Origin: a virus | Lineage: Duplodnaviria; Heunggongvirae; Uroviricota; Caudoviricetes | Direction: 5' to 3' (one strand) | Virus record (IMG/VR): IMGVR_UViG_2541047735_000003 | Location: 1-40,965 of that record | DNA length: 40,965 nucleotides | Part shown: piece after piece, positions 5,198 through 37,571 of the stretch | Layout: each line of letters begins with the position of its first letter | How positions within the stretch are numbered: the first letter of the stretch is position 1 | Notes under the pieces: generated by a model | Told to the model about the DNA's origin: nothing | Databases searched by the model: none | The model's input: the letters and a program-made list of their open reading frames with translations, nothing else | Program-made: the position numbers and the translations under genes

Positions 5198-5212
5198 TTA
5201 CCGTTGAGGTAA
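5198..5212. promoter_or_regulatory. Operator palindrome TTACCGTTGAGGTAA (leftward promoter region)
   Basis: TTACC-N5-GGTAA between the leftward -35-like element and the start of the first leftward gene. Confidence 0.6.
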
Positions 5213-5259
5213 TAATTATGCGTATTTGGTTTGATGTCAATAGATATGAGTTAAAAAAA

Positions 5260-5274
5260 TTACCCATTAGGTAA
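5260..5274. promoter_or_regulatory. Operator palindrome TTACCCATTAGGTAA
   Basis: Perfect TTACC-N5-GGTAA about 20 bp upstream of the TTGACA -35-like element of the leftward promoter. Confidence 0.6.
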
Positions 5275-5331: not shown

Positions 5332-5916
5332 TTATTGTTTGTTTTTTTCGTTCTGGTTGATGACAAATTCAATGTAACTTTCGATCTTTGCTTTCTCGGT
5401 TTCGGGTAACAATGCGTAGCGCGAGCGGTCATAGTTGATGGTCGCAGGGTCGTGCGGGTGAATCAGTAATTCATAGCCGTGACGCCCGAATGCGGATGCA
5501 ACATTCTCCAGGGTGGAAATGGAAACGCTGACCTCATTGTTTAACAGGCGGCTGATTGTCACCTGGGCGACGCCGGATGCGCGGTGAAGTTTTCCCTGTG
5601 TTGAAAGGTCGCGGCTTTCGCTCATCCAGCGTTCCAGGTTGTGAGCCGCCAGCTGGCCAATGTCGCTTGGGCCGACAGGCTGAAAACCTTCCTGAGAAAG
5701 CGAGCGATCGATATCAAGCCAGTTACGGGGTTTATTGGCGGCAGCTTCAATTTTTCGCGCAACCTGGTCGCCGATAACCTTCTTGCCAAGAGCCCAGCGG
5801 TTTACCAGATTTGCCTGAGTTCCAAGTTTTTCTGCCATCCGCGTCTGAACACCATTGAATTCACGGTCGATCAAGTCGTTGAGATTTTGCCTGCGGACGT
5901 CCTGGATACTTTTCAT
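5332..5916 (-). CDS. CI-like prophage repressor with two HTH domains and no S24 peptidase domain
   Basis: 194-aa protein; N-terminal Cro/CI-type HTH (TRMAEKLGTQANLVNRWALGKK) and a second HTH-like segment (ASGVAQVTISRLLNNE); divergent from the cro-like gene across an operator-rich intergenic region; no Ala-Gly/Ser-Lys autocleavage module seen. Confidence 0.65.
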   Translation of the reverse strand: MKSIQDVRRQNLNDLIDREFNGVQTRMAEKLGTQANLVNRWALGKKVIGDQVARKIEAAANKPRNWLDIDRSLSQEGFQPVGPSDIGQLAAHNLERWMSESRDLSTQGKLHRASGVAQVTISRLLNNEVSVSISTLENVASAFGRHGYELLIHPHDPATINYDRSRYALLPETEKAKIESYIEFVINQNEKNKQ

Positions 5917-5971: not shown

Positions 5972-6034
5972 TTACCCAACAGGTAAATGCACCCCATAGG
6001 TAACTATCCTTGATTTTTGTTACCTTATGGGTGA
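5972..6034. promoter_or_regulatory. Tripartite operator between repressor and cro-like genes
   Basis: Three sites in 63 bp: TTACCCAACAGGTAA (5972-5986), GCACCCCATAGGTAA (5989-6003), TTACCTTATGGGTGA (6020-6034). Confidence 0.65.
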
Positions 6035-8278: not shown

Positions 8279-8293
8279 TTACCTATAAGGTAA
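8279..8293. promoter_or_regulatory. Operator palindrome TTACCTATAAGGTAA
   Basis: Perfect site in the intergenic region after the P-like gene. Confidence 0.55.
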
Positions 8294-8340
8294 CAAAACA
8301 TTCTAAACTCTATTGATTTCGTGTCTTATGTGGTTTTTAA

Positions 8341-8355
8341 TTACCTTAGAGGTAA
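8341..8355. promoter_or_regulatory. Operator palindrome TTACCTTAGAGGTAA overlapping RBS
   Basis: Perfect site ending 3 nt before ATG 8359; its right half doubles as the Shine-Dalgarno region. Confidence 0.55.
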
Positions 8356-10268: not shown

Positions 10269-10481
10269 ATGCCAAAAATACGCTACGACCTTGAAGATAT
10301 GAGAGATAACTCAGCAAATTTTCCGAAAGAGGTTAAATTTCTCATGCATAAGTATGGTTGCGCCAGGAGGGATATAGTTATCGACAGTCAGCACCCTTGC
10401 GGCGAGGATGTAATTTTCATTCGCGGTAAATGGGAAGGGTATCTTGACGAGAGTTTTTACGATGAATTTGATGGACTTTGA
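10269..10481 (+). CDS. Hypothetical protein
   Basis: ORF-track frame 10248..10481; ATG at 10269 (MPKIRYD) preceded by GAAGGTG; no motif. Confidence 0.4.
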   Translation: MPKIRYDLEDMRDNSANFPKEVKFLMHKYGCARRDIVIDSQHPCGEDVIFIRGKWEGYLDESFYDEFDGL

Positions 10482-10523
10482 ATACTGCCGCCAACTATGG
10501 CGGCTTTATTTTGCATGGTACTA

Positions 10524-10538
10524 TTACCACAACGGTAA
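10524..10538. promoter_or_regulatory. Operator palindrome TTACCACAACGGTAA upstream of terminase small subunit
   Basis: Perfect site 17 nt upstream of ATG 10556. Confidence 0.55.
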
Positions 10539-10555
10539 CTATTACCACGGTGGTT

Positions 10556-11152
10556 ATGATGCCTGCTGAACCTAAAACCTATAAACGCAAATCAACGCAA
10601 TTTAAGCCACTAACAGCAATGCAGGAGGCTTATTGCCAGTCATACATCAAAACGCCTGAAAACCAGACTCAGGCAGCGATTAACGCAGGATTCTCCCCAA
10701 ATACAGCGGCAGTTAAAGCCAGTGTCATGATGCGCGATGAACGCATTCAAAAACGGATTGCCGAGTTGATGGAGGAGCGCAACAAACGAATGCGCGTCAG
10801 TGCTGATTACGTTCTCATGCGCCTGGTGGAGATCGACCAGATGGACGTGATCGACATCCTCAACGACGATGGGAGCCTTAAGCCAATCCGCGAGTGGCCG
10901 AAAATCTGGCGCACTACGCTTAGTGGCTTTGATCTGTCATCGACCATCATGAACATGAACGAGGATTCGATAGAGACAATCCTCAAAAAAATTAAATGGC
11001 CTGACAAGGTGAAGAACCTCGAACTGATTGGTAAGCACGTCGACGTCAACGCATTCAAAGAACGCCTGGATGTTAATGTGAATGTGACAATTGCTGATCG
11101 CATAGCGGCAGCCAGGAAGAGACTGAAAGAACGTCAGGATGGCAATCAGTGA
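10556..11152 (+). CDS. Terminase small subunit
   Basis: Directly upstream of and overlapping the large terminase; about 199 aa from ATG 10556 (ORF-track frame opens at TTG 10478); small-terminase-like region TPENQTQAAINAGFSPNTAAVKASVMM. Confidence 0.65.
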   Translation: MMPAEPKTYKRKSTQFKPLTAMQEAYCQSYIKTPENQTQAAINAGFSPNTAAVKASVMMRDERIQKRIAELMEERNKRMRVSADYVLMRLVEIDQMDVIDILNDDGSLKPIREWPKIWRTTLSGFDLSSTIMNMNEDSIETILKKIKWPDKVKNLELIGKHVDVNAFKERLDVNVNVTIADRIAAARKRLKERQDGNQ

Positions 11153-12624
11153 CAGATACAGCGTTATCTCCTGAAGAGCAGTTAATCGAGGATATTGCAG
11201 GGTTCACTCACGATCCGCTTGGCTATGCCCTCTATGCGTTCCCGTGGGGGGAAGAGGGTACTGAACTGGCACATGCCACCGGTCCACGTCAGTGGCAGGC
11301 CGATGCGTTCCGAGAGATACGTGATCACCTGCAGAATCCAGAGACGCGATATCAGCCGCTTATGCTGGCACGTGCTTCTGGTCACGGTATTGGTAAATCC
11401 GCATTCATCTCAATGCTGATCAACTGGGGCATGTCCACTTGCGAGGATTGTAAGGTCGTGGTGACCGCCAACACCGACAACCAGCTACGAACGAAGACCT
11501 GGCCGGAAATTATCAAGTGGTCAAACCTTGCTATCACGAAAGACTGGTTTACCTGTACCGCTACCGCGATGTACAGCAATGACCCTGGGCACGACAAGCG
11601 GTGGCGAGCTGACGCAATCCCCTGGTCTGAGCACAACACTGAGGCATTCGCCGGACTACACAACGAGCGTAAACGCATCATCGTGGTATTTGATGAAGCG
11701 TCGAACATTGCGGATCTGGTGTGGGAAGTTGCCGAGGGTGCGCTAACGGACGAAGACACTGAGATTATCTGGGTGGCTTTCGGAAACCCTACACGTAACA
11801 CCGGGCGTTTCCGTGAATGTTTCCGCAAATACAAACACCGCTGGAAAACTGCGCAGATTGACAGCAGGACGGTGGAAGGCACCAACAAACAGCAGTTGCA
11901 GAAATGGGTTGATGACTACGGGGAAGATAGCGACTTCGTTAAAATCCGTGTGCGTGGCATATTCCCTGATGCATCTGAATTGCAGTTTATCCCTACCGGT
12001 CTTACTGACGAGGCAATGAAACGGGTGGTAACTGCTGCGCAGGTGGCACATGCTCCGGTGATAATCGGCGTTGACCCGGCATACTCCGGCGTTGATGACG
12101 CTGTGATATACCTGCGGCAGGGGCTACACAGTAAGGTGCTGTGGACTGGCAACAAGACTACCGACGATCTGATTATGGCGAAGCGTATCGCTGACTTTGA
12201 AGACCAGTATCAGGCTGACGCGGTGTTCATCGACTTCGGTTACGGAACCGGTTTGAAGTCAATCGGTGACGGCTGGGGTCGTACATGGCAACTTGTTCCG
12301 TTCGGTGGCGCGTCTACTGACCAGCAGATGCTCAACAAGCGTGGGGAGATGTTCAACTCATGCAAGACATGGCTGAGGCTGGGCGGCATGCTTGATGACC
12401 AGGAAACAGCGGACGACCTGTCGGCGGCAGAGTACAAAGTTCGAGTGGACGGTAAAATCGTTATCGAACCGAAGGAAGATATCAAGGAGCGGCTTGGGCG
12501 TTCTCCTGGTAAAGGCGATGCGCTACTGCTGACGTTTGCGTTCCCGGTGTCAAAGCGCCTGCGAATTCCCGGGCAGCAGAACCAGCAAGGCAAGGCCATT
12601 ACAGATTACGATCCCTATGCTTAA
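11149..12624 (+). CDS. Terminase large subunit
   Basis: 491-aa protein; ATPase-like region (LARASGHGIGKSAF, VVFDEASNI) followed by a nuclease-like C-terminal half; canonical position after the small subunit. Confidence 0.85.
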   Translation: MTDTALSPEEQLIEDIAGFTHDPLGYALYAFPWGEEGTELAHATGPRQWQADAFREIRDHLQNPETRYQPLMLARASGHGIGKSAFISMLINWGMSTCEDCKVVVTANTDNQLRTKTWPEIIKWSNLAITKDWFTCTATAMYSNDPGHDKRWRADAIPWSEHNTEAFAGLHNERKRIIVVFDEASNIADLVWEVAEGALTDEDTEIIWVAFGNPTRNTGRFRECFRKYKHRWKTAQIDSRTVEGTNKQQLQKWVDDYGEDSDFVKIRVRGIFPDASELQFIPTGLTDEAMKRVVTAAQVAHAPVIIGVDPAYSGVDDAVIYLRQGLHSKVLWTGNKTTDDLIMAKRIADFEDQYQADAVFIDFGYGTGLKSIGDGWGRTWQLVPFGGASTDQQMLNKRGEMFNSCKTWLRLGGMLDDQETADDLSAAEYKVRVDGKIVIEPKEDIKERLGRSPGKGDALLLTFAFPVSKRLRIPGQQNQQGKAITDYDPYA

Positions 12625-12674
12625 TCCGTTAGCGGGGATAATGACGGAGATATCCTCTGGTGAGGATAAAACAA

Positions 12675-12694
12675 AGCCAGCTCATCGGCTGGCT
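12675..12694. terminator. Bidirectional stem-loop between terminase and convergent moron gene
   Basis: AGCCAGC-TCATCG-GCTGGCT with T-rich sequence on both strands. Confidence 0.45.
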
Positions 12695-12697
12695 GTT

Positions 12698-12711
12698 TGT
12701 GACATGTCACG
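12698..12711. repeat. 14-bp palindrome TGTGACATGTCACG (copy 2)
   Basis: Identical 14-mer between the terminase stop and the convergent minus-strand gene, immediately after hairpin 12675-12694. Confidence 0.6.
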
Positions 12712-12714
12712 GTG

Positions 12715-13086
12715 TTATTGCTCGCTTAACTTCTGCTTCAGCAAGTAACCTTCAAGCATCCAGATTTTGTTTACAGCATTCTGCCGGGCAATCTTCCGAC
12801 CAATTTCCGCATCAAAGTTTTCTGGGCTTGCACAGGCGCTCTCTCCGGTGACGGTGAAGCCGTTGCGCAGCACCAGAACGCAGAACGTCAGCAGAGAAAG
12901 TGATTCGTTCGGCTGGTAGTTTACCTCTCCGCCAGTATGTTTCGCTTTTATGGCCACGCCAAAGACACCATCTTCTGCTGTGAAATATGCCTCCTGAGCA
13001 ATAATGCTCTCGATATGGTCTGGCGTAACGCGCGGCGCGGCTAAACCTTTAGCCTGAATTTCAGATTCAATGTCTTTGTCACTCAT
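12715..13086 (-). CDS. Hypothetical phage protein (moron, opposite strand)
   Basis: 123-aa ORF on the minus strand between terminase and portal, co-oriented with the tRNA; bounded by a hairpin and the 14-bp palindrome. Confidence 0.5.
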   Translation of the reverse strand: MSDKDIESEIQAKGLAAPRVTPDHIESIIAQEAYFTAEDGVFGVAIKAKHTGGEVNYQPNESLSLLTFCVLVLRNGFTVTGESACASPENFDAEIGRKIARQNAVNKIWMLEGYLLKQKLSEQ

Positions 13087-13289
13087 AGTCTATTCTCAAC
13101 TTAAAAAAATGCCCGGCGAACCGGGCGAACTGGAGGCAATGAGTTATGCCTTCCGTGGCTGTACTGGTTTACAGCATGAAGTCATCGCAATGGCGTCCTG
13201 CTGTAAAAATGGCGGTGATAGTCCTTCAAGGGAAACCATCACCGCCAAGCCCCTGGAACTTCTGGCATCACGGTCCTTAGGCGTGATTC

Positions 13290-13366
13290 TGGCGTGGCAT
13301 GCAGGATTCGAACCTGCGACCAACCGCTTAGAAGGCGGTTGCTCTGTCCAACTGAGCTAATGCCAC
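13290..13366 (-). tRNA. tRNA-Arg (anticodon UCU)
   Basis: Minus strand reads GTGGCATTAGCTCAGTTGGACAGAGCAACCGCCTTCTAAGCGGTTGGTCGCAGGTTCGAATCCTGCATGCCACGCCA: 7-bp acceptor stem, D-arm, anticodon loop CTTCTAA (anticodon TCT), T-loop GGTTCGAATCC, encoded CCA. Confidence 0.85.
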
Positions 13367-13688
13367 AACGCTGAGAGCACTTAGCCTGTTAAGGCACCAC
13401 ACTTTGTCGCGGCTCCATAAATGCTCTCATCGTTGCACCCTCGTCTCTTCCGAGGTGTCACACCGAATCGCCGGGATGGTGAATCCCCGTGCGCGGAATA
13501 AAACCGCTCGACTTGCACATTCCGGCTACCTGGTTCGTTTGCCATAGCAAGGGAGGGTGCCCCTTAAACGTATCCAGACCGCTATCGGCGCATGTGCCAT
13601 ACACCGTACTGCTCAAAATAAAAGCTCACCCCACCTGTTCAATTTAACGACAAGCCAGTCAGGTTAATAACCGGAATGAACTCTTTGC

Positions 13689-13703
13689 TTACCTGAAAGG
13701 TAA
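13689..13703. promoter_or_regulatory. Operator palindrome TTACCTGAAAGGTAA upstream of portal operon
   Basis: Perfect site about 90 bp upstream of ATG 13794; identical 15-mer to the site at 34333. Confidence 0.55.
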
Positions 13704-13793
13704 TAATTAGTGCGTTAAATGTCAAGTATCTACGATAAATAAATCACATGTGGTTAAATTGGTAATAATTTAATTGCGTACGGAGTCATTGAT

Positions 13794-14000
13794 ATGTGCA
13801 TGGGTAGCTCACCATCAGTGCCTGCAACACCAGAAGTTCAGGCAGCACCACAGGAGCAGGATGCCGCCGTTGTTGATGCCCGCGACGAAGAAACTCGTCG
13901 CCGTCGCGCTGCTGCTGGTCGTAGTTCTACGCTGCTTACCGGTTCTCAGGGCGACACATCAACCGCTAATACCAGCGGTAAAACGCTACTTGGTCAGTAA
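13794..14000 (+). CDS. Hypothetical small protein preceding portal
   Basis: 68-aa ORF with GGAGT upstream of ATG; first gene of the rightward structural operon. Confidence 0.45.
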   Translation: MCMGSSPSVPATPEVQAAPQEQDAAVVDARDEETRRRRAAAGRSSTLLTGSQGDTSTANTSGKTLLGQ

Positions 14001-14014
14001 CCGGAGTCATTGAA

Positions 14015-15694
14015 ATGGCGGAAACAACTAAAGAGCGATTGAACAAACAGTTCGCACAACTTGAAAGCGAGCGTCAGTCGTTCGAGCCGCACTGGCGCGA
14101 GTTGAGTGATTACATCAACCCGCGTGGTTCCCGCTTTCTGACTTCTGAGGTCAACCGTAACGATCGACGCAATACACGTATTATTGATTCGACCGGGACT
14201 ATGGCGGCGCGCACTCTCGCCAGCGGCATGATGTCAGGCATCACAAGCCCCGCGCGTCCGTGGTTTCGCCTGGCTACGCCAGATCCTGAAATGATGGATT
14301 ATGGCCCTGTTAAGTTGTGGCTTGAGGTGGTGCAGAACCGCATGAACGATATGTTCAATAAGTCGAATCTCTACCAGTCTCTTCCGCAGTTATACGGAAG
14401 CCTCGGCACATACAGCACTGGTGCAATGGCAGTGCTGGAGGATGACGAGGACATCATTCGCACAATGCCATTCCCGATAGGCAGTTACTACCTGGCTAAC
14501 TCACCTCGTGGCAGTGTGGACACCTGTTTTCGCAAGTTCTCTATGACTGTTCGTCAGCTTGTTCAGGAGTTCGGGCTAAATAACGTCAGCGAATCCGTAA
14601 AAAGCATGTGGGAAAGCGGCACCTACGAGAAGTGGATTGAAGTGATGCATTCGGTTTACCCGAACATTGACCGCGATACATCGAAGCTGGATAGCAAGAA
14701 CAAGCCATTCAAATCGGTTTATTACGAGGTTGGTGGCGATAACGACAAGTTGTTGCGTGAGTCCGGATTCGATGAGTTTCCAATTATGGCTCCGCGCTGG
14801 GAAGTTAACGGCGAAGATGTTTATGGATCATCATGCCCGGGTATGCTGGCGCTTGGACCTGTTAAGGCATTGCAGCTTCTCCAGAAGCGCAAGTCGCAGT
14901 TGATTGATAAAGCCACCAATCCGCCGATGGTTGCTCCGACTTCCCTCAAGAATCAGCGTGCCTCCCTTCTTCCTGGCGACATCACGTATATCGATCAGAT
15001 TACTGGTCAGGATGGTTTCAGGCCTGCTTATCTGGTTAACCCCAGTACAGCAGATTTGGTGGCAGACATTCAGGACACTCGTCAAATCATTAACAGCGCC
15101 TACTTTGTCGATCTGTTCATGATGTTGCAGAACATCAATACCCGCTCGATGCCTGTTGAAGCGGTGATCGAAATGAAAGAAGAAAAACTTCTGATGTTGG
15201 GGCCGGTTCTGGAGCGTCTGAACGACGAATGTCTTAATCCTCTCATTGACCGCTCTTTCTCGATGATGGTGCGTAAAAACATGCTGCCGCCACCGCCAGA
15301 CGTGATGGAAGGTATGCCCCTGAAGGTCGAATACATTTCCGTCATGGCTCAGGCGCAGAAGTCTATCGGCCTGTCCAGTCTGGCGTCCACGGTTAACTTC
15401 ATTGGTCAACTTGCGCAAGCGAAACCAGAAGCTCTCGACAAACTCAACGTTGATCAGGCGATCGATGCATTCGCTGATATGTCCGGAGTGTCTCCAACCG
15501 TCATTGTTCCGCAGGAACAGGTTGAGCAGGCTCGCCAGCAACGGGCACAGCAGCAACAGCAGCAACAAATGATGGCGATGGGGATGGCGGCGGCACAGGG
15601 TGCCAAGACGCTAAGCGAAGCTAAAACTTCGGATCCGAGTGTTTTGTCAGCTATGGCGAATGCAGTTAGTGGTCAGGGTGGGCAATCACAATGA
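14015..15694 (+). CDS. Portal (head-to-tail connector) protein
   Basis: 559-aa protein immediately after the terminase module, typical portal size; glutamine-rich C-terminus. Confidence 0.75.
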   Translation: MAETTKERLNKQFAQLESERQSFEPHWRELSDYINPRGSRFLTSEVNRNDRRNTRIIDSTGTMAARTLASGMMSGITSPARPWFRLATPDPEMMDYGPVKLWLEVVQNRMNDMFNKSNLYQSLPQLYGSLGTYSTGAMAVLEDDEDIIRTMPFPIGSYYLANSPRGSVDTCFRKFSMTVRQLVQEFGLNNVSESVKSMWESGTYEKWIEVMHSVYPNIDRDTSKLDSKNKPFKSVYYEVGGDNDKLLRESGFDEFPIMAPRWEVNGEDVYGSSCPGMLALGPVKALQLLQKRKSQLIDKATNPPMVAPTSLKNQRASLLPGDITYIDQITGQDGFRPAYLVNPSTADLVADIQDTRQIINSAYFVDLFMMLQNINTRSMPVEAVIEMKEEKLLMLGPVLERLNDECLNPLIDRSFSMMVRKNMLPPPPDVMEGMPLKVEYISVMAQAQKSIGLSSLASTVNFIGQLAQAKPEALDKLNVDQAIDAFADMSGVSPTVIVPQEQVEQARQQRAQQQQQQQMMAMGMAAAQGAKTLSEAKTSDPSVLSAMANAVSGQGGQSQ

Positions 15695-30726: not shown

Positions 30727-30741
30727 TTACCTTTTCGGTAA
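30727..30741. promoter_or_regulatory. Operator palindrome TTACCTTTTCGGTAA at head of antirepressor leader 1
   Basis: Perfect site followed by TTTACA, a hairpin and an intrinsic terminator. Confidence 0.55.
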
Positions 30742-30831
30742 ATTTACATCGCGCTCATCTTGTGCCATAGTAATCGGGCACTGGCAAAATCCAGTGCCGG
30801 GATTGGCGTCCCGGGTTACTAAGTGGCGCAT

Positions 30832-30854
30832 ACCACGCCAGACGTGGTTTTTTT
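30832..30854 (+). terminator. Intrinsic terminator inside antirepressor leader 1
   Basis: ACCACG-CCAGA-CGTGGT followed by seven T; about 155 bp upstream of the antirepressor start codon. Confidence 0.6.
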
Positions 30855-31010
30855 ATGCGTTAAGCACAGCTATATCCGAATTATGGTGGGCTGGGCAGGG
30901 GTCCGAAAGGACGCCGGTACCACTTAGGCCGGTACGCCAACCTTGTCCAGTTCACCACCAGTAATTGGCGTTGCGGTGGTGATTAAAATCACTAAGTGGA
31001 GATAACCACC

Positions 31011-31793: not shown

Positions 31794-31808
31794 TTACCTT
31801 AAAGGTAA
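31794..31808. promoter_or_regulatory. Operator palindrome TTACCTTAAAGGTAA upstream of cargo operon
   Basis: Perfect site 43 bp upstream of ATG 31851. Confidence 0.55.
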
Positions 31809-33730: not shown

Positions 33731-33967
33731 TCAGATGGTGGTGAACTGTGCAGAGTTGGTCTTACCGGCTACAAAGGAACCCGGCGCACCTTTCGGTGCC
33801 CCCACACAGCCCACCATAGAATAGGTGCGCTTTACACATAAAAAAACCGCTTATGCGGCATATGTGCCTCTGTAGTAATCCGGGAGACCAATCCCGGCAC
33901 TGGATTTTGCCAGTGCCCGATTACTATGGCACAAGAGGAGTGCGATGTAAATTTACCGAAAAGGTAA
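33731..33967 (-). repeat. Antirepressor leader, inverted-repeat copy A'
   Basis: Reverse complement aligns with 30715..30995, including the operator, the hairpin and a T-run terminator with a shorter CCGC-ATAA-GCGG stem. Confidence 0.6.
33953..33967. promoter_or_regulatory. Operator palindrome TTACCGAAAAGGTAA at head of antirepressor leader 2
   Basis: Perfect site; mirror-image counterpart of the site at 30727. Confidence 0.55.
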
Positions 33968-34332: not shown

Positions 34333-34347
34333 TTACCTGAAAGGTAA
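34333..34347. promoter_or_regulatory. Operator palindrome TTACCTGAAAGGTAA between small antirepressor gene and tailspike
   Basis: Perfect site in the divergent intergenic region. Confidence 0.55.
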
Positions 34348-34451: not shown

Positions 34452-37400
34452 ATGACGGTCTCAACCGAAGTTGACCACAACGAATACACCGGTAACGGCG
34501 TTACGACATCGTTTCCGTATACTTTTCGAATTTTCAGAAAATCAGACCTGGTTGTTCAGGTGTCTGACCTGAACGGGAACGTAACAGAATTGGTTCTGGA
34601 TACCGGTTATACGGTAACTGGGGCGGGCACTTATAGTGGCGGTGCAGTGGTTCTTCCGTCGCCGCTTGCTGCTGGCTGGCGAATCACGATAGAGCGTGTG
34701 CTTGATGTGGTGCAGGAGACAGACCTTCGCAATCAGGGAAAATTTTTCCCCGAAGTGCATGAAGATGCCTTTGACTACCTGACGATGCTGATCCAGCAAT
34801 GTTTTGGGTGGTTCAGACGTGCATTGATGAAACCATCTTTGCTTGCAAAATATTACGATGCAAAGCAAAACAAAATTTCTAACCTTGCAGATCCATCATT
34901 TGAGCAGGACGCTGTAAATAATCGCTCAATGCGTAATTATGTCGATGCTGCAATCGCCGGGGTTGTTGGTGGTTTTGGTTGGTTTATTCAGTATGGTTCT
35001 GGGGCTGTGTACCGAACGTTCCAGGATAAAATGCGTGATGCTATTAGCCCCAAAGATTTTGGAGCTGTTGGTGATGGTATAAATGACGATTCCACTGCAA
35101 TAAGCGCGTGCCTTGAAGCCTCATCTCCAGGTTATAAAATTGACGGATTAGGGCTTACTTTTAAAGTATCAACTCTTCCGGATGTCAGTCGATTTAAAAA
35201 TGCTCGTTTTTTATTTGAGAGAATACCGGGCCAGCCTCTTTTTTATGCTTCTGAAGATTTTATCCAGGGAGAGTTATTTAAAATTACAGATACACCGTGG
35301 TACAACGCCTGGACGCAGGATAAAACGTTTGTATATGACAATGTCATCTATGCGCCTTTTATGGCTGGAGACCGCCATGGTGTAAATAACCTCCATGTTG
35401 CATGGGTTCGCTCAGGAGATGACGGGAAGACCTGGACAACGCCGGAATGGCTTACAGATTTACATGAAAACTATCCCACAGTTAACTATCACTGCATGAG
35501 TATGGGGGTTGTCAGAAATCGCCTTTTTGCTGTAATTGAGACGCGGACCGTGAGCGGAAATAAACTGCAGGTTGCAGAGTTGTGGGATCGCCCAATGAGT
35601 CGCAGCCTTCGCGTTTATGGTGGTATAACGAAAGCAGCAAATCAGCAAGTCGCTTATATTCGCATTACTGATCACGGATTATTTGCTGGTGATTTTGTCA
35701 ACTTCTCAAACTCTGGTGTTACAGGTGTTACCGGGAATATGACGGTGACTACTGTTATTGATAAAAATACTTTTACAGTTACGACGCAAAATACCCAGGA
35801 TGTGGATCAGAATAACGAGGGTAGATACTGGAGTTTTGGTACATCATTTCACTCGTCACCATGGAGAAAAACCAGTCTTGGAACTATTCCTTCTTTTGTT
35901 GACGGAAGCACTCCTGTTACTGAGATTCACAGTTTTGCGACGATTAGCGATAACAGTTTTGCTGTTGGCTACCATAATGGTGATATTGGTCCACGCGAGC
36001 TTGGGATACTCTATTTCTCTGATGCTTTCGGTTCTCCTGGTAGCTTTGTTCGCAGACGCATACCTGCAGAATATGAGGCGAATGCATCTGAGCCATGTGT
36101 AAAATATTATGATGGCATTCTGTATCTGACGACCAGGGGGACATTAAGTACTCAACCCGGTAGTTCATTGCACAGAAGCTCTGATTTAGGTACATCATGG
36201 AATTCTCTTCGCTTCCCAAATAATGTTCATCACTCAAACCTTCCTTTTGCCAAAGTTGGCGATGAGCTGATTATTTTTGGCAGTGAGCGCGCATTTGGTG
36301 AGTGGGAAGGAGGAGAACCTGATAACCGTTATGCAGGAAATTATCCAAGAACATTTATGACCAGAGTTAACGTCAATGAGTGGAGTCTGGATAATGTAGA
36401 GTGGGTTAATGTTACTGATCAGATTTATCAGGGCGGAATAGTTAACTCTGCGGTTGGTGTTGGTTCAGTTTGTATCAAAGACAACTGGCTGTACTACATT
36501 TTCGGTGGGGAAGACTTTCTAAACCCATGGAGCATAGGGGATAACAACAGAAAATATCCTTATTTTCACGATGGTCACCCGGCTGATTTGTATTGTTTCA
36601 GGGTGAAAATTAAACAGGAAGAATTTGTTTCAAGGGATTTTGTCTACGGAGCCACTCCTAACAGAACGCTTCCTACTTTTATGTCGACGTCAGGCGTGAG
36701 GACGGTTCCTGTACCCGTTGATTTCACAGATGATGTTGCCGTCCAGTCACTGACTGTCCATGCAGGTACATCAGGACAAGTTCGCGCGGAAGTCAAACTT
36801 GAGGGTAATTACGCCATTATTGCGAAGAAAGTACCGTCTGATGATGTTACCGCTCAGAGATTAATCGTTAGCGGCGGTGAAACAACGTCTTCAGCAGATG
36901 GTGCAATGATAACGTTGCATGGTTCCGGAAGCAGTACTCCACGTCGCGCGGTATATAACGCACTCGAACATCTTTTTGAGAACGGAGATGTTAAACCTTA
37001 TCTTGATAATGTAAATGCTCTTGGTGGTCCGGGAAACAGGTTCTCGACAGTTTATCTTGGCTCCAATCCTGTGGTTACCAGTGACGGAACATTAAAGACA
37101 GAGCCGGTCTCTCCTGACGAAGCATTGCTGGATGCCTGGGGTGACGTCAGGTATATCGCTTATAAATGGCTGAACGCTGTCGCTATAAAGGGGGAAGAAG
37201 GGGCGAGGATACATCATGGTGTAATCGCGCAGCAACTTCGTGATGTTCTTATTTCTCACGGACTCATGGAAGAAGAAAGCACAACATGCCGCTATGCCTT
37301 TCTTTGCTATGACGATTATCCCGCAGTATATGATGACGTCATTACTGGCCAAAGGGAAATGCCGCTGACTGATAATGACGGGAGCATCATTGTTGATGAG

Positions 37401-37571
37401 GATGATAATCCAGTGATGGTAATAGAAGACATCATTGAGCGCGTTGAAATAACGCCAGCAGGATCTAGATGGGGGGTCAGACCTGATCTCTTATTCTATA
37501 TCGAGGCAGCATGGCAGCGCAGAGAAATGGATAAGATAAAAGAGCGGGTTCAGTCTCTGGAAGAACGTTAA
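34452..37571 (+). CDS. Tailspike / receptor-binding protein with sialidase-like domain and C-terminal chaperone
   Basis: 1039 aa; two Asp-box motifs (SGDDGKTW, SSDLGTSW); C-terminal SDGTLKTEPV...HHGVIAQQLRDVL resembles the autoproteolytic S74 chaperone domain of endosialidase-type tail proteins. Confidence 0.8.
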   Translation: MTVSTEVDHNEYTGNGVTTSFPYTFRIFRKSDLVVQVSDLNGNVTELVLDTGYTVTGAGTYSGGAVVLPSPLAAGWRITIERVLDVVQETDLRNQGKFFPEVHEDAFDYLTMLIQQCFGWFRRALMKPSLLAKYYDAKQNKISNLADPSFEQDAVNNRSMRNYVDAAIAGVVGGFGWFIQYGSGAVYRTFQDKMRDAISPKDFGAVGDGINDDSTAISACLEASSPGYKIDGLGLTFKVSTLPDVSRFKNARFLFERIPGQPLFYASEDFIQGELFKITDTPWYNAWTQDKTFVYDNVIYAPFMAGDRHGVNNLHVAWVRSGDDGKTWTTPEWLTDLHENYPTVNYHCMSMGVVRNRLFAVIETRTVSGNKLQVAELWDRPMSRSLRVYGGITKAANQQVAYIRITDHGLFAGDFVNFSNSGVTGVTGNMTVTTVIDKNTFTVTTQNTQDVDQNNEGRYWSFGTSFHSSPWRKTSLGTIPSFVDGSTPVTEIHSFATISDNSFAVGYHNGDIGPRELGILYFSDAFGSPGSFVRRRIPAEYEANASEPCVKYYDGILYLTTRGTLSTQPGSSLHRSSDLGTSWNSLRFPNNVHHSNLPFAKVGDELIIFGSERAFGEWEGGEPDNRYAGNYPRTFMTRVNVNEWSLDNVEWVNVTDQIYQGGIVNSAVGVGSVCIKDNWLYYIFGGEDFLNPWSIGDNNRKYPYFHDGHPADLYCFRVKIKQEEFVSRDFVYGATPNRTLPTFMSTSGVRTVPVPVDFTDDVAVQSLTVHAGTSGQVRAEVKLEGNYAIIAKKVPSDDVTAQRLIVSGGETTSSADGAMITLHGSGSSTPRRAVYNALEHLFENGDVKPYLDNVNALGGPGNRFSTVYLGSNPVVTSDGTLKTEPVSPDEALLDAWGDVRYIAYKWLNAVAIKGEEGARIHHGVIAQQLRDVLISHGLMEEESTTCRYAFLCYDDYPAVYDDVITGQREMPLTDNDGSIIVDEDDNPVMVIEDIIERVEITPAGSRWGVRPDLLFYIEAAWQRREMDKIKERVQSLEER

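Follow-up and report, generated by a model that had tools for sequence, protein, structure and literature searches.

What is carried, and under what control, by a minus-strand unit lodged between two plus-strand phage genes? The question is raised by a DNA stretch of 40,965 nucleotides (nt; IMG/VR record IMGVR_UViG_2541047735_000003, hereafter the window), a phiV10/epsilon15-like (Uetakevirus) prophage whose positions 12400-14100 show 98.4% identity to Escherichia phage phiV10 and 99.9% to a prophage in Escherichia coli ST95-32. The unit sits between terL and the portal gene and contains, in minus-strand order, an inferred promoter, a non-coding stretch, a tRNA-Arg(UCU) gene, two terminator-like hairpins, a gene of the Gp49/Sf6-gp66 family and a final terminator. 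The original prediction, made from the sequence alone, had supposed that the non-coding stretch might hold a promoter or another small RNA; it appears to hold both, namely a candidate promoter with an operator palindrome and a conserved structured RNA. This RNA element is the main interest of the locus, since it is real, widespread, missing from Rfam and nearly unannotated, whereas the tRNA and the Gp49 gene were already known. Its parts are as follows, the helices and the pseudoknot being those of our alignment model.

13608-13694, minus strand: 5' leader with a degenerate hairpin of P6 type, with presumed boundaries (aligns with other Uetakevirus leaders)
13607-13367, minus strand: conserved structured RNA of ~240 nt (covariation; homologues in many phages)
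13606-13586, minus strand: helix P1
13577-74 with 13533-30, minus strand: base of helix P2
13530-13512, minus strand: invariant 19-mer GGUAGCCGGAAUGUGCAAG (alignment)
13507-13493, minus strand: helix P3
13487-13473, minus strand: helix P4
13481-78 with 13464-61, minus strand: pseudoknot
13455-13439, minus strand: helix P5
13435-22 with 13379-66, minus strand: helix P6

The element thus comprises five to six helices, one pseudoknot and the invariant 19-mer. Its core (P1 to P5) measures ~170 nt, extended to ~240 nt by P6, whose final base in the window is base +1 of the tRNA. We tested this structure on 59 diverse copies (alignment A2), in which invariant blocks alternate with variable hairpins, by writing down a model of six helices and one pseudoknot (39 pairs) and then counting. 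Standard pairs occupied 88.4% of the cells at the modelled positions, against 28-51% when the partners were slid by one to three columns. Both sides had changed in 24 of the 39 pairs, and the covariation score of 0.272 (0.144 in shuffles) was reached by none of 500 shuffles. Characteristic exchanges were found in P1 (columns 113-125, AU:30 and GC:26), P2 (columns 139-201, CG:47 and UA:12), P4 (columns 266-274, AU:38, UG:15 and CG:4), P5 (columns 299-310, CG:41 and GC:11) and the pseudoknot (columns 269-289, CG:48 and AU:5). The lone unpaired cell of the latter, like most single non-standard cells in the counts, comes from one row, L139, a contig of an Oscillospiraceae metagenome-assembled genome that we left in the alignment; an exact 19-mer stands there between flanks that could not be aligned to the element, so that we consider it a chance match. 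G-U pairs were frequent (for example, UG:55 at columns 114-124) and, since they would read A-C on the other strand, they identify the minus strand, the same as that of the tRNA, as the functional one. On this comparative evidence, we regard as established that the RNA is conserved, on which strand it lies and that its secondary structure includes one pseudoknot.

Several parts of the fold vary among copies. The 3' motif of P6 was not found in about one third of them, including those of phages P1 and PAT1, while a GUUGUGG motif at the 3' junction was retained even where no tRNA follows. The 5' leader of the window matches the AAAGCGCGCUUC...GGAGUGCGCUUU leaders of PAT1 and Tyrion (alignments A1 and A2). 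A second long-range pairing is possible between GCACAU in P1 and AUGUGC in the 19-mer, both sides of which are invariant. A kissing interaction of the loops of P2 (UUCC) and P5 (GGAA) was considered and discarded, as covariation was not seen across the alignment rows. Hairpins of P6 type (CAAC..RAGCGCR...YGCGCUYYCA-GUUG-UGG) occur twice in the window (13694-13608 and 13435-13366), precede the core in Uetakeviruses and stand in tandem in the long early leaders of mEp390 (L161, 2880-3560) and of another locus, L162 (2830-3250). Most copies of the element carry, in the apical region of P2, a UCCCUUG(A) motif that is also found in the loop of the first terminator hairpin of the window (13247-13210).

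How widespread is this RNA? A sensitive BLAST search with 13367-13700 retrieved 86 phage records of very different kinds, and a further count found the element in 88. They include Uetakeviruses, the lambdoid phages cdtI, mEp460, 2H10, Ayreon and Stx2c- and Stx2a-converting phages, P1, P7 and related plasmid prophages, as well as Klebsiella, Salmonella and Enterobacter phages and a Lastavirus. The 19-mer GGTAGCCGGAATGTGCAAG was present in at least 120 IMG/VR contigs and in 24 contigs of species-representative genomes, almost all from Enterobacterales (Escherichia, Klebsiella, Citrobacter, Kosakonia, Kluyvera, Enterobacter, Phytobacter, Buttiauxella and Erwinia). Among complete E. coli genomes, 1837 of 5426 contained the element, at up to four places per genome and with 554 places on plasmids. 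Despite this abundance, nearly all the phage matches listed had no annotation over the element, RefSeq annotation was absent under almost every E. coli match listed, and 13367-13690 is unannotated in phiV10, typing phage 9 and the ST95-32 prophage. With the covariance models of Rfam 15, only the tRNA reached the threshold in 12600-14050 and the element had no match at E ≤ 5; it was likewise unmatched when the whole window was searched at gathering thresholds. A full-text literature search, which did not cover King et al. 2011 (J Bacteriol 193:5784, new put-like RNAs), found no description of it. A pseudoknotted RNA of ~240 nt that is so widespread and yet missing from Rfam and from genome annotation merits a family model and experiments, even if the mechanism that we propose below were wrong.

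The original prediction had seen no convincing open reading frame (ORF) in the non-coding stretch, and we found none longer than 54 amino acids in 13367-13690. It had also called the region GC-rich, which holds only in part: 13367-13688 has 52.5% GC, little above the 49.8% of the window, although the RNA core reaches 56%, and the adjoining 13608-13793 is AT-rich (34.9% GC). Since the stretch lies directly upstream of the tRNA, with a candidate promoter at its far end, it might be merely a promoter and a passive 5' leader of that tRNA or, given the small hypothetical ORFs annotated across it in some records, the remnant of a protein gene. We consider the probability of either as negligible. The ORFs are short and differ between records, so that we rejected protein coding across the element, and the element maintains 70-82% identity, with compensatory base changes, even in phages without the tRNA. 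In fact, an adjacent tRNA, always on the same strand as the element, was found at only ~40% of ~130 loci: a tRNA-Arg(UCU) abuts its 3' end at roughly a quarter of them, and a tRNA with anticodon CAU, annotated in P1 as trnI (tRNA-Ile2), abuts its 5' end at ~15%. The remaining loci, the majority, have no nearby tRNA, which indicates that the element is independent of it.

The coincidence of element ends with tRNA ends, together with the long invariant single-stranded stretches, the pseudoknot and the possible GCACAU-AUGUGC pairing that are typical of ribozymes and aptamers, might also suggest a ribozyme, self-cleaving or of another kind, or a riboswitch that senses a ligand, in control of the processing or expression of the adjacent tRNA or mRNA. 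This would be very surprising: no Rfam ribozyme or riboswitch matched, the 3' part of the fold lacks the overlapping terminator or ribosome-binding site expected of an expression platform, and the downstream cargo is too varied for a single ligand.

An indication of function came from the position of the element in other phages. It is most often found in the early-left leader of lambdoid phages, and the gene most often upstream of it encodes a cI-like repressor in the same orientation (58 of ~150 loci). In cdtI, the order is the cI stop codon, a terminator, a promoter, ~55 nt, the element, two strong terminators and the first early-left ORF. The promoter (TTGACA-16-CATAAT, with 11 of 12 consensus matches) carries the operator TGTACCCTTGAGATACA, whose half-sites are those of the TGTACC..GGTACA operators between cI and cro. 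The element thereby occupies in cdtI the position of nutL in lambda and of putL in HK022. The gene order is the same in mEp460, Stx2c phages, Stx2a_WGPS2, mEp390 and Stenotrophomonas phage BUCT708, and in the last one, as in cdtI, we could read strong terminators after the element. None of these phages has an annotated N gene, and the recurrent downstream ORF families gave no N-like Pfam hit and have no arginine-rich N-terminus. Outside lambdoids, the element of P1 lies between trnI and ban, inside the C1-controlled ban operon, where we saw no terminator between element and ban when reading the sequence. In the Lastavirus SopranoGao, a terminator and then a promoter-like site precede it. At 96 loci, the first real ORF downstream shares its strand with the element, and at 20 it is on the opposite one. 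The position of the element is thus a recurring one, with an early promoter before it and terminators and genes of the same orientation behind it.

This is the position of a known antitermination RNA. The put RNA of phage HK022 is a cis-acting RNA of ~70 nt with two stems that binds the zinc-binding domain of the RNA polymerase β' subunit and suppresses pausing and termination (PMC9378689), and the record of HK639 annotates a 'putL-like antiterminator RNA' after its pL promoter. Like the element, put of HK022 and HK639 is encoded in cis just after a repressor-controlled early-left promoter of N-less lambdoids, ahead of terminators (PMC9378689). We found the element in this very position in cdtI, mEp460, the Stx2c phages, Stx2a_WGPS2, mEp390 and BUCT708; in the window, the promoter of this arrangement is a putative one. 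N-less lambdoids of this kind have been noted, for which a put-like mechanism could only be suggested (PMC12315714).

Element and put are even found in each other's place. The hairpin GCGCAGGCUGAUGCGC follows the element at 24 loci and put at two. One of the latter, L270, is a lambdoid with a cI-like repressor upstream and a YqaJ recombinase, in which put follows a promoter similar to PL of HK639. Compared with Tyrion, which has the element, its upstream sequence is unrelated, but ~120 nt are near-identical from GCGCAGGCUGAUGCGC onward. The second, L170, shows the same pattern relative to the element-bearing L059, with near-identity over ~110 nt. In these two pairs of phages, element and put precede near-identical downstream leaders, so that, by sequence comparison, they are interchangeable in position.

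The similarity hardly extends to sequence, and the element is not a member of the put family, with which it has no detectable homology. In HK022 and HK639, put stem I has the same foot as P1 of the element (A-CGGCG...CAUGCGUCG, in which the third pair is G-U), a coincidence limited to 15 bases at the foot of the first hairpin; the remainder of the put consensus (GUCGAACGGCGCGAC..UAAACCAUGCGUCGG..GGCGGG..GGCAAU) and its V-shaped fold are not found in the element. Unlike put, the element also occurs outside lambdoids (P1/P7, Uetakevirus, Lastavirus) and is often fused to tRNA genes. The pattern ACGGCG-N9-14-CATGCGTCG was tried on IMG/VR and abandoned: among the first 28 loci, 11 were true put and the others chance matches, with no hybrid containing the 19-mer.

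The hairpin that follows both RNAs shows some peculiarities of its own. In the form (G/A)UGAAUGCGCAGGCUGAUGCGC it recurs in phage early leaders: after the element at the 24 loci (for example, L009, L010, L025, L138, L158 and L160), after put at L170 and L270, and in another position at 15 more loci, one of which is the P1 locus L005. It mimics an ORF start ('MNAQADA...') with a non-conserved tail of 9-52 amino acids that is arginine-rich (RKTLQLLRKRAVRRGN) in E. coli lambdoid phages, loosely recalling the N-terminal arginine-rich motif of lambda N. Nevertheless, as this ORF is conserved for seven codons only, it reflects the RNA hairpin.

Could the unit of the window be organized in the same way? 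The following minus-strand signals flank the element and the tRNA.

13720-13725, minus strand: candidate -35 box (TTGACA) of the unit promoter, read by eye
13702-13697, minus strand: candidate -10 box (TACCTT), 17 bases after the -35 box, read by eye
13689-13703, no strand (palindrome): operator-like TTACCTTTCAGGTAA, of the pattern TTACC-N5-GGTAA, overlapping the candidate -10 box
13210-13247, minus strand: first terminator-like hairpin, a 15-bp stem followed by UUUUU (hairpin scan)
13104-13126, minus strand: second terminator-like hairpin, GCCCGGUUCGCCGGGC then AUUUUUUU, directly before the ribosome-binding site of the Gp49 gene (hairpin scan)

The candidate promoter was passed over by a consensus promoter scan because its -10 box matches at only 3 of 6 positions; the layout TTGAC(A/G)-N17-TACCTT is also present in a Klebsiella relative (alignment A1). 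The palindrome that overlaps it belongs to a phage-wide set: TTACC-N5-GGTAA has 13 copies in the window against 0.69 expected, a count reached by none of 100 shuffles (5198-5274, 5972-6034, 8279-8355, 10524-10556, 13689-13703, 30727-30741, 31794-31808, 33953-33967 and 34333-34347). Paired palindromes stand on both sides of a helix-turn-helix repressor-like ORF (5332-5916, PF01381), in a placement similar to that of OL and OR of lambda, and single or paired ones ahead of other transcription units. Since the candidate promoter is overlapped by this phage-wide operator, the minus-strand unit looks repressor-controlled, as are PL in lambdoids and Pban in P1. Tyrion and L059 also possess both terminator-like hairpins, with altered bases in the stems. 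The first of them (GGCGGT...ACCGCC, then TTTTTAC) is likewise found, again with an altered stem, in the lambdoid cdtI, whose first terminator it resembles.

The position of the element, its positional exchange with put, the terminators that follow it and the lack of an annotated N gene in its lambdoid carriers point to a cis-acting antitermination leader. We give about even chances to the reading that the element is a new and larger RNA of this kind. In the window, it would be the first structured sequence transcribed from the operator-controlled promoter at 13725-13697, where transcription of the unit would start. Once folded, it would make the transcribing RNA polymerase resist termination, a job like that of HK022 put, possibly with some need for host Nus factors. 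Transcription would then pass through the tRNA-Arg and the terminator hairpins at 13247-13210 and 13126-13104 into the Gp49-family gene. Element and tRNA would be co-transcribed, and the RNase P cut at the 5' end of the tRNA would define the 3' end of the element. In N-less lambdoids, the element would carry transcription into the whole early-left operon. A broader version, in which it represents a new, much larger class of protein-independent RNA that modifies RNA polymerase, serves early expression in N-less lambdoids (Stx2a- and Stx2c-converting phages among them), P1-family plasmid prophages and epsilon15-like phages and protects untranslated, tRNA-bearing transcripts against termination, is more tentative, and we hold it somewhat more doubtful than true. 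If the antitermination reading is correct, it would answer how lambdoid phages without N express their early operons, an open question in recent phage genomics, and it would add a second natural RNA, structurally distinct, able to reprogram RNA polymerase. Given its frequency, in about one of three complete E. coli genomes as well as in Stx2 phages and P1-like plasmids, the element could be relevant to the induction of prophages and to when toxin phages express their genes.

Several observations speak against an antitermination leader. The promoter of the window was spotted by eye and not called by the consensus scan. The absence of N comes from annotations and from the recurrent ORF families, not from an exhaustive search. 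At least two terminator-like hairpins lie within 680 nt downstream at 26% of loci, compared with 9.5% of control windows, but this enrichment is modest and the detector is lax (at least one hit in 41% of control windows). Profile searches with nhmmer gave E > 5 both ways (element profile against HK022 and HK639, and a 31-variant put profile against the element), and the element, which folds into five to six helices with a pseudoknot and contains the invariant 19-mer, is far from the ~70 nt and two stems of put. The block exchanged between phages includes promoter and operators, so the swap could reflect an exchange of immunity cassettes rather than equal function. The unit of the window is short, with a tRNA and a single gene, which makes the need for antitermination less obvious than in lambdoids. 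Finally, the layout of promoter, RNA and terminator equally fits a stand-alone RNA gene.

Such a stable non-coding RNA, acting in trans and either made from its own promoter or cut out of tRNA transcripts by RNase P and tRNA-processing enzymes, is the alternative that we take most seriously, although we think it unlikely. It would account for the ~40% of copies that abut a tRNA exactly at its 5' or 3' end on the same strand, for the GUUGUGG kept at the 3' junction where the tRNA is missing, and for a complex fold with a pseudoknot and long invariant stretches, far larger than put. There are also precedents among structured RNAs that, like the element, are borne by phages beside tRNA genes, with which they are probably co-transcribed: the species 1 and 2 RNAs of T4 (rnaC and rnaD), which are stable and belong to the T4 tRNA operon, and the GOLLD and ROOL RNAs, reported near tRNAs in prophages (PMC5737381). 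However, the kind of context is all that the element has in common with rnaC and rnaD, which we rejected as homologues for want of any sequence similarity; no Rfam hit links it to GOLLD or ROOL either, and most of its copies start early operons instead of lying beside a tRNA. Its 3' flank is variable (tRNA, ban leader or further leader modules), with very different distances to terminators, and in P1 it lies inside an operon with no terminator seen before ban. A trans-acting RNA would leave unexplained its consistent placement after repressor-controlled early promoters, in the place of nut or put.

That placement could also be explained if Nus factors of the host, or a phage protein that has escaped recognition, docked on the element as on a nut site or on the leader of an rrn operon, with proteins carrying out the antitermination and the RNA serving as their assembly platform. 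The element shares with lambda nut sites and the rrn leader its early-leader position, an octamer similar to boxA on the 3' side of P6 (often UGCUCUUU or UGCUCUUA, compared with UGCUCUUUAACAA for rrn boxA) and a conserved hairpin that follows in many relatives, the hairpin GCGCAGGCUGAUGCGC at 24 loci having a spacing of the boxA-boxB kind. In long leaders, a GU-rich GCUGUGUGUAGUCUUGG resembling boxC follows P6-type hairpins. Yet the strand that resembles boxA pairs and covaries with its partner, and about one third of copies, that of phage P1 among them, have no P6. Nut sites and rrn leaders contain nothing equivalent to the conserved core (helices P1 to P5), and we found no protein family that goes along with the element in all three contexts (lambdoid, P1 and Uetakevirus). 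As the boxA and boxC resemblances are short and were noticed post hoc, we did not retain them other than as a lead. We did not find antitermination of the lambda N/nut type, the boxA likeness being loose and no N being annotated in the phages examined (by a search that was not exhaustive). A docking platform is therefore improbable, appreciably more so than a trans-acting RNA, and a leader RNA that acts directly on the polymerase remains the reading that we favour.

The other components of the unit and their neighbours are more conventional.

11149-12624, plus strand: terL, annotated neighbour of the unit
12675-12694, minus strand: terminator-like hairpin closing the unit, opposite the terL end (hairpin scan; phiV10 annotates a rho-independent terminator at the corresponding position)
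12715-13086, minus strand: Gp49 / Sf6 gp66 family gene (N4 Gp49), 123 amino acids (PF13876 Phage_gp49_66, E = 2.5e-35; RefSeq 'Gp49 family protein')
13290-13366, minus strand: tRNA-Arg(UCU) with encoded CCA, abutting the 3' end of the element (ARAGORN; Rfam RF00005)
14015-15694, plus strand: portal gene (PF12236, E = 2.7e-187)

The original prediction was right that a minus-strand gene and a tRNA interrupt the plus-strand run between terL and portal, and that they form an opposite-strand moron. The unit has the opposite orientation, terminator-like hairpins, a candidate promoter and a cargo that differs among relatives: the Gp49-family gene, the only protein-coding gene of the unit, is replaced by DUF2829 in Klebsiella phage ST512-KPC3phi13.3 and by DUF551 in Tyrion, and the tRNA is present in some relatives and absent in others. 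Records of the phiV10 type show the small and large terminase subunit genes, the minus-strand 'Gp49 family' gene, the tRNA-Arg (in some records only), an unannotated gap, a 68-amino-acid ORF and the portal gene. The tRNA-Arg and the Gp49-family gene are ordinary phage cargo that was already annotated.

The tRNA itself, proposed as a phage tRNA for the rare AGA codon, is genuine. ARAGORN called it with anticodon tct at position 35, as the single tRNA of the window (no second tRNA or transfer-messenger RNA was called), and it scored 73.3 bits (E = 2.5e-14) against RF00005, whose gathering score is 29. We aligned it with argU of E. coli K-12, the T4 tRNA-Arg and a Klebsiella phage tRNA-Arg. A hand count from the alignment gave ~64 of 77 bases in common with argU, the differences falling mostly in the acceptor and anticodon stems with pairing preserved. 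The phiV10 genome record and typing phage 9 have the identical locus layout, with phage genes on either side. As originally proposed, the tRNA is thus, by this arrangement and its divergence from argU, carried by the phage and not a host integration target. It reads AGA, like other phage tRNA-Arg(UCU) genes (T4 tRNA-Arg; argN and argO of Stx phages), and compared with these we found nothing unusual in it; several phage records annotate it. AGA makes up 46 of the 8687 codons in the window (5.3 per 1000), compared with an average of about 2 per 1000 in E. coli. This excess agrees with the idea that the tRNA serves a rare codon, but the AGA codons are concentrated in ORF 34452-37571 (16 codons), which we take to be the tailspike gene, and in a few early genes, and are nearly absent from the head genes, which makes the rationale plausible but weak.

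In their dispersal, the TTACC-N5-GGTAA palindromes recall the C1 operators of P1 and look like a similar operator system. The small terminase gene, annotated at 10478-11152, contains two of them at its start, a hint that the true start codon is further downstream. Others precede each of two inverted pairs of isrK and C4 antisense RNAs (30778-30962, plus strand, and 33734-33916, minus strand; 66-79 bits in Rfam), and these duplicated isrK/C4 regions resemble the immI-type antirepressor control region of P1 and P7. On the other side of the candidate promoter of the unit, upstream of the portal gene, a plus-strand ORF of 68 amino acids (MCMGSSPSVPATPEV..., 13794-14000) without a Pfam match is conserved in Uetakeviruses. 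The AT-rich segment 13700-13790 probably also holds the plus-strand promoter of this gene, divergent from that of the element.

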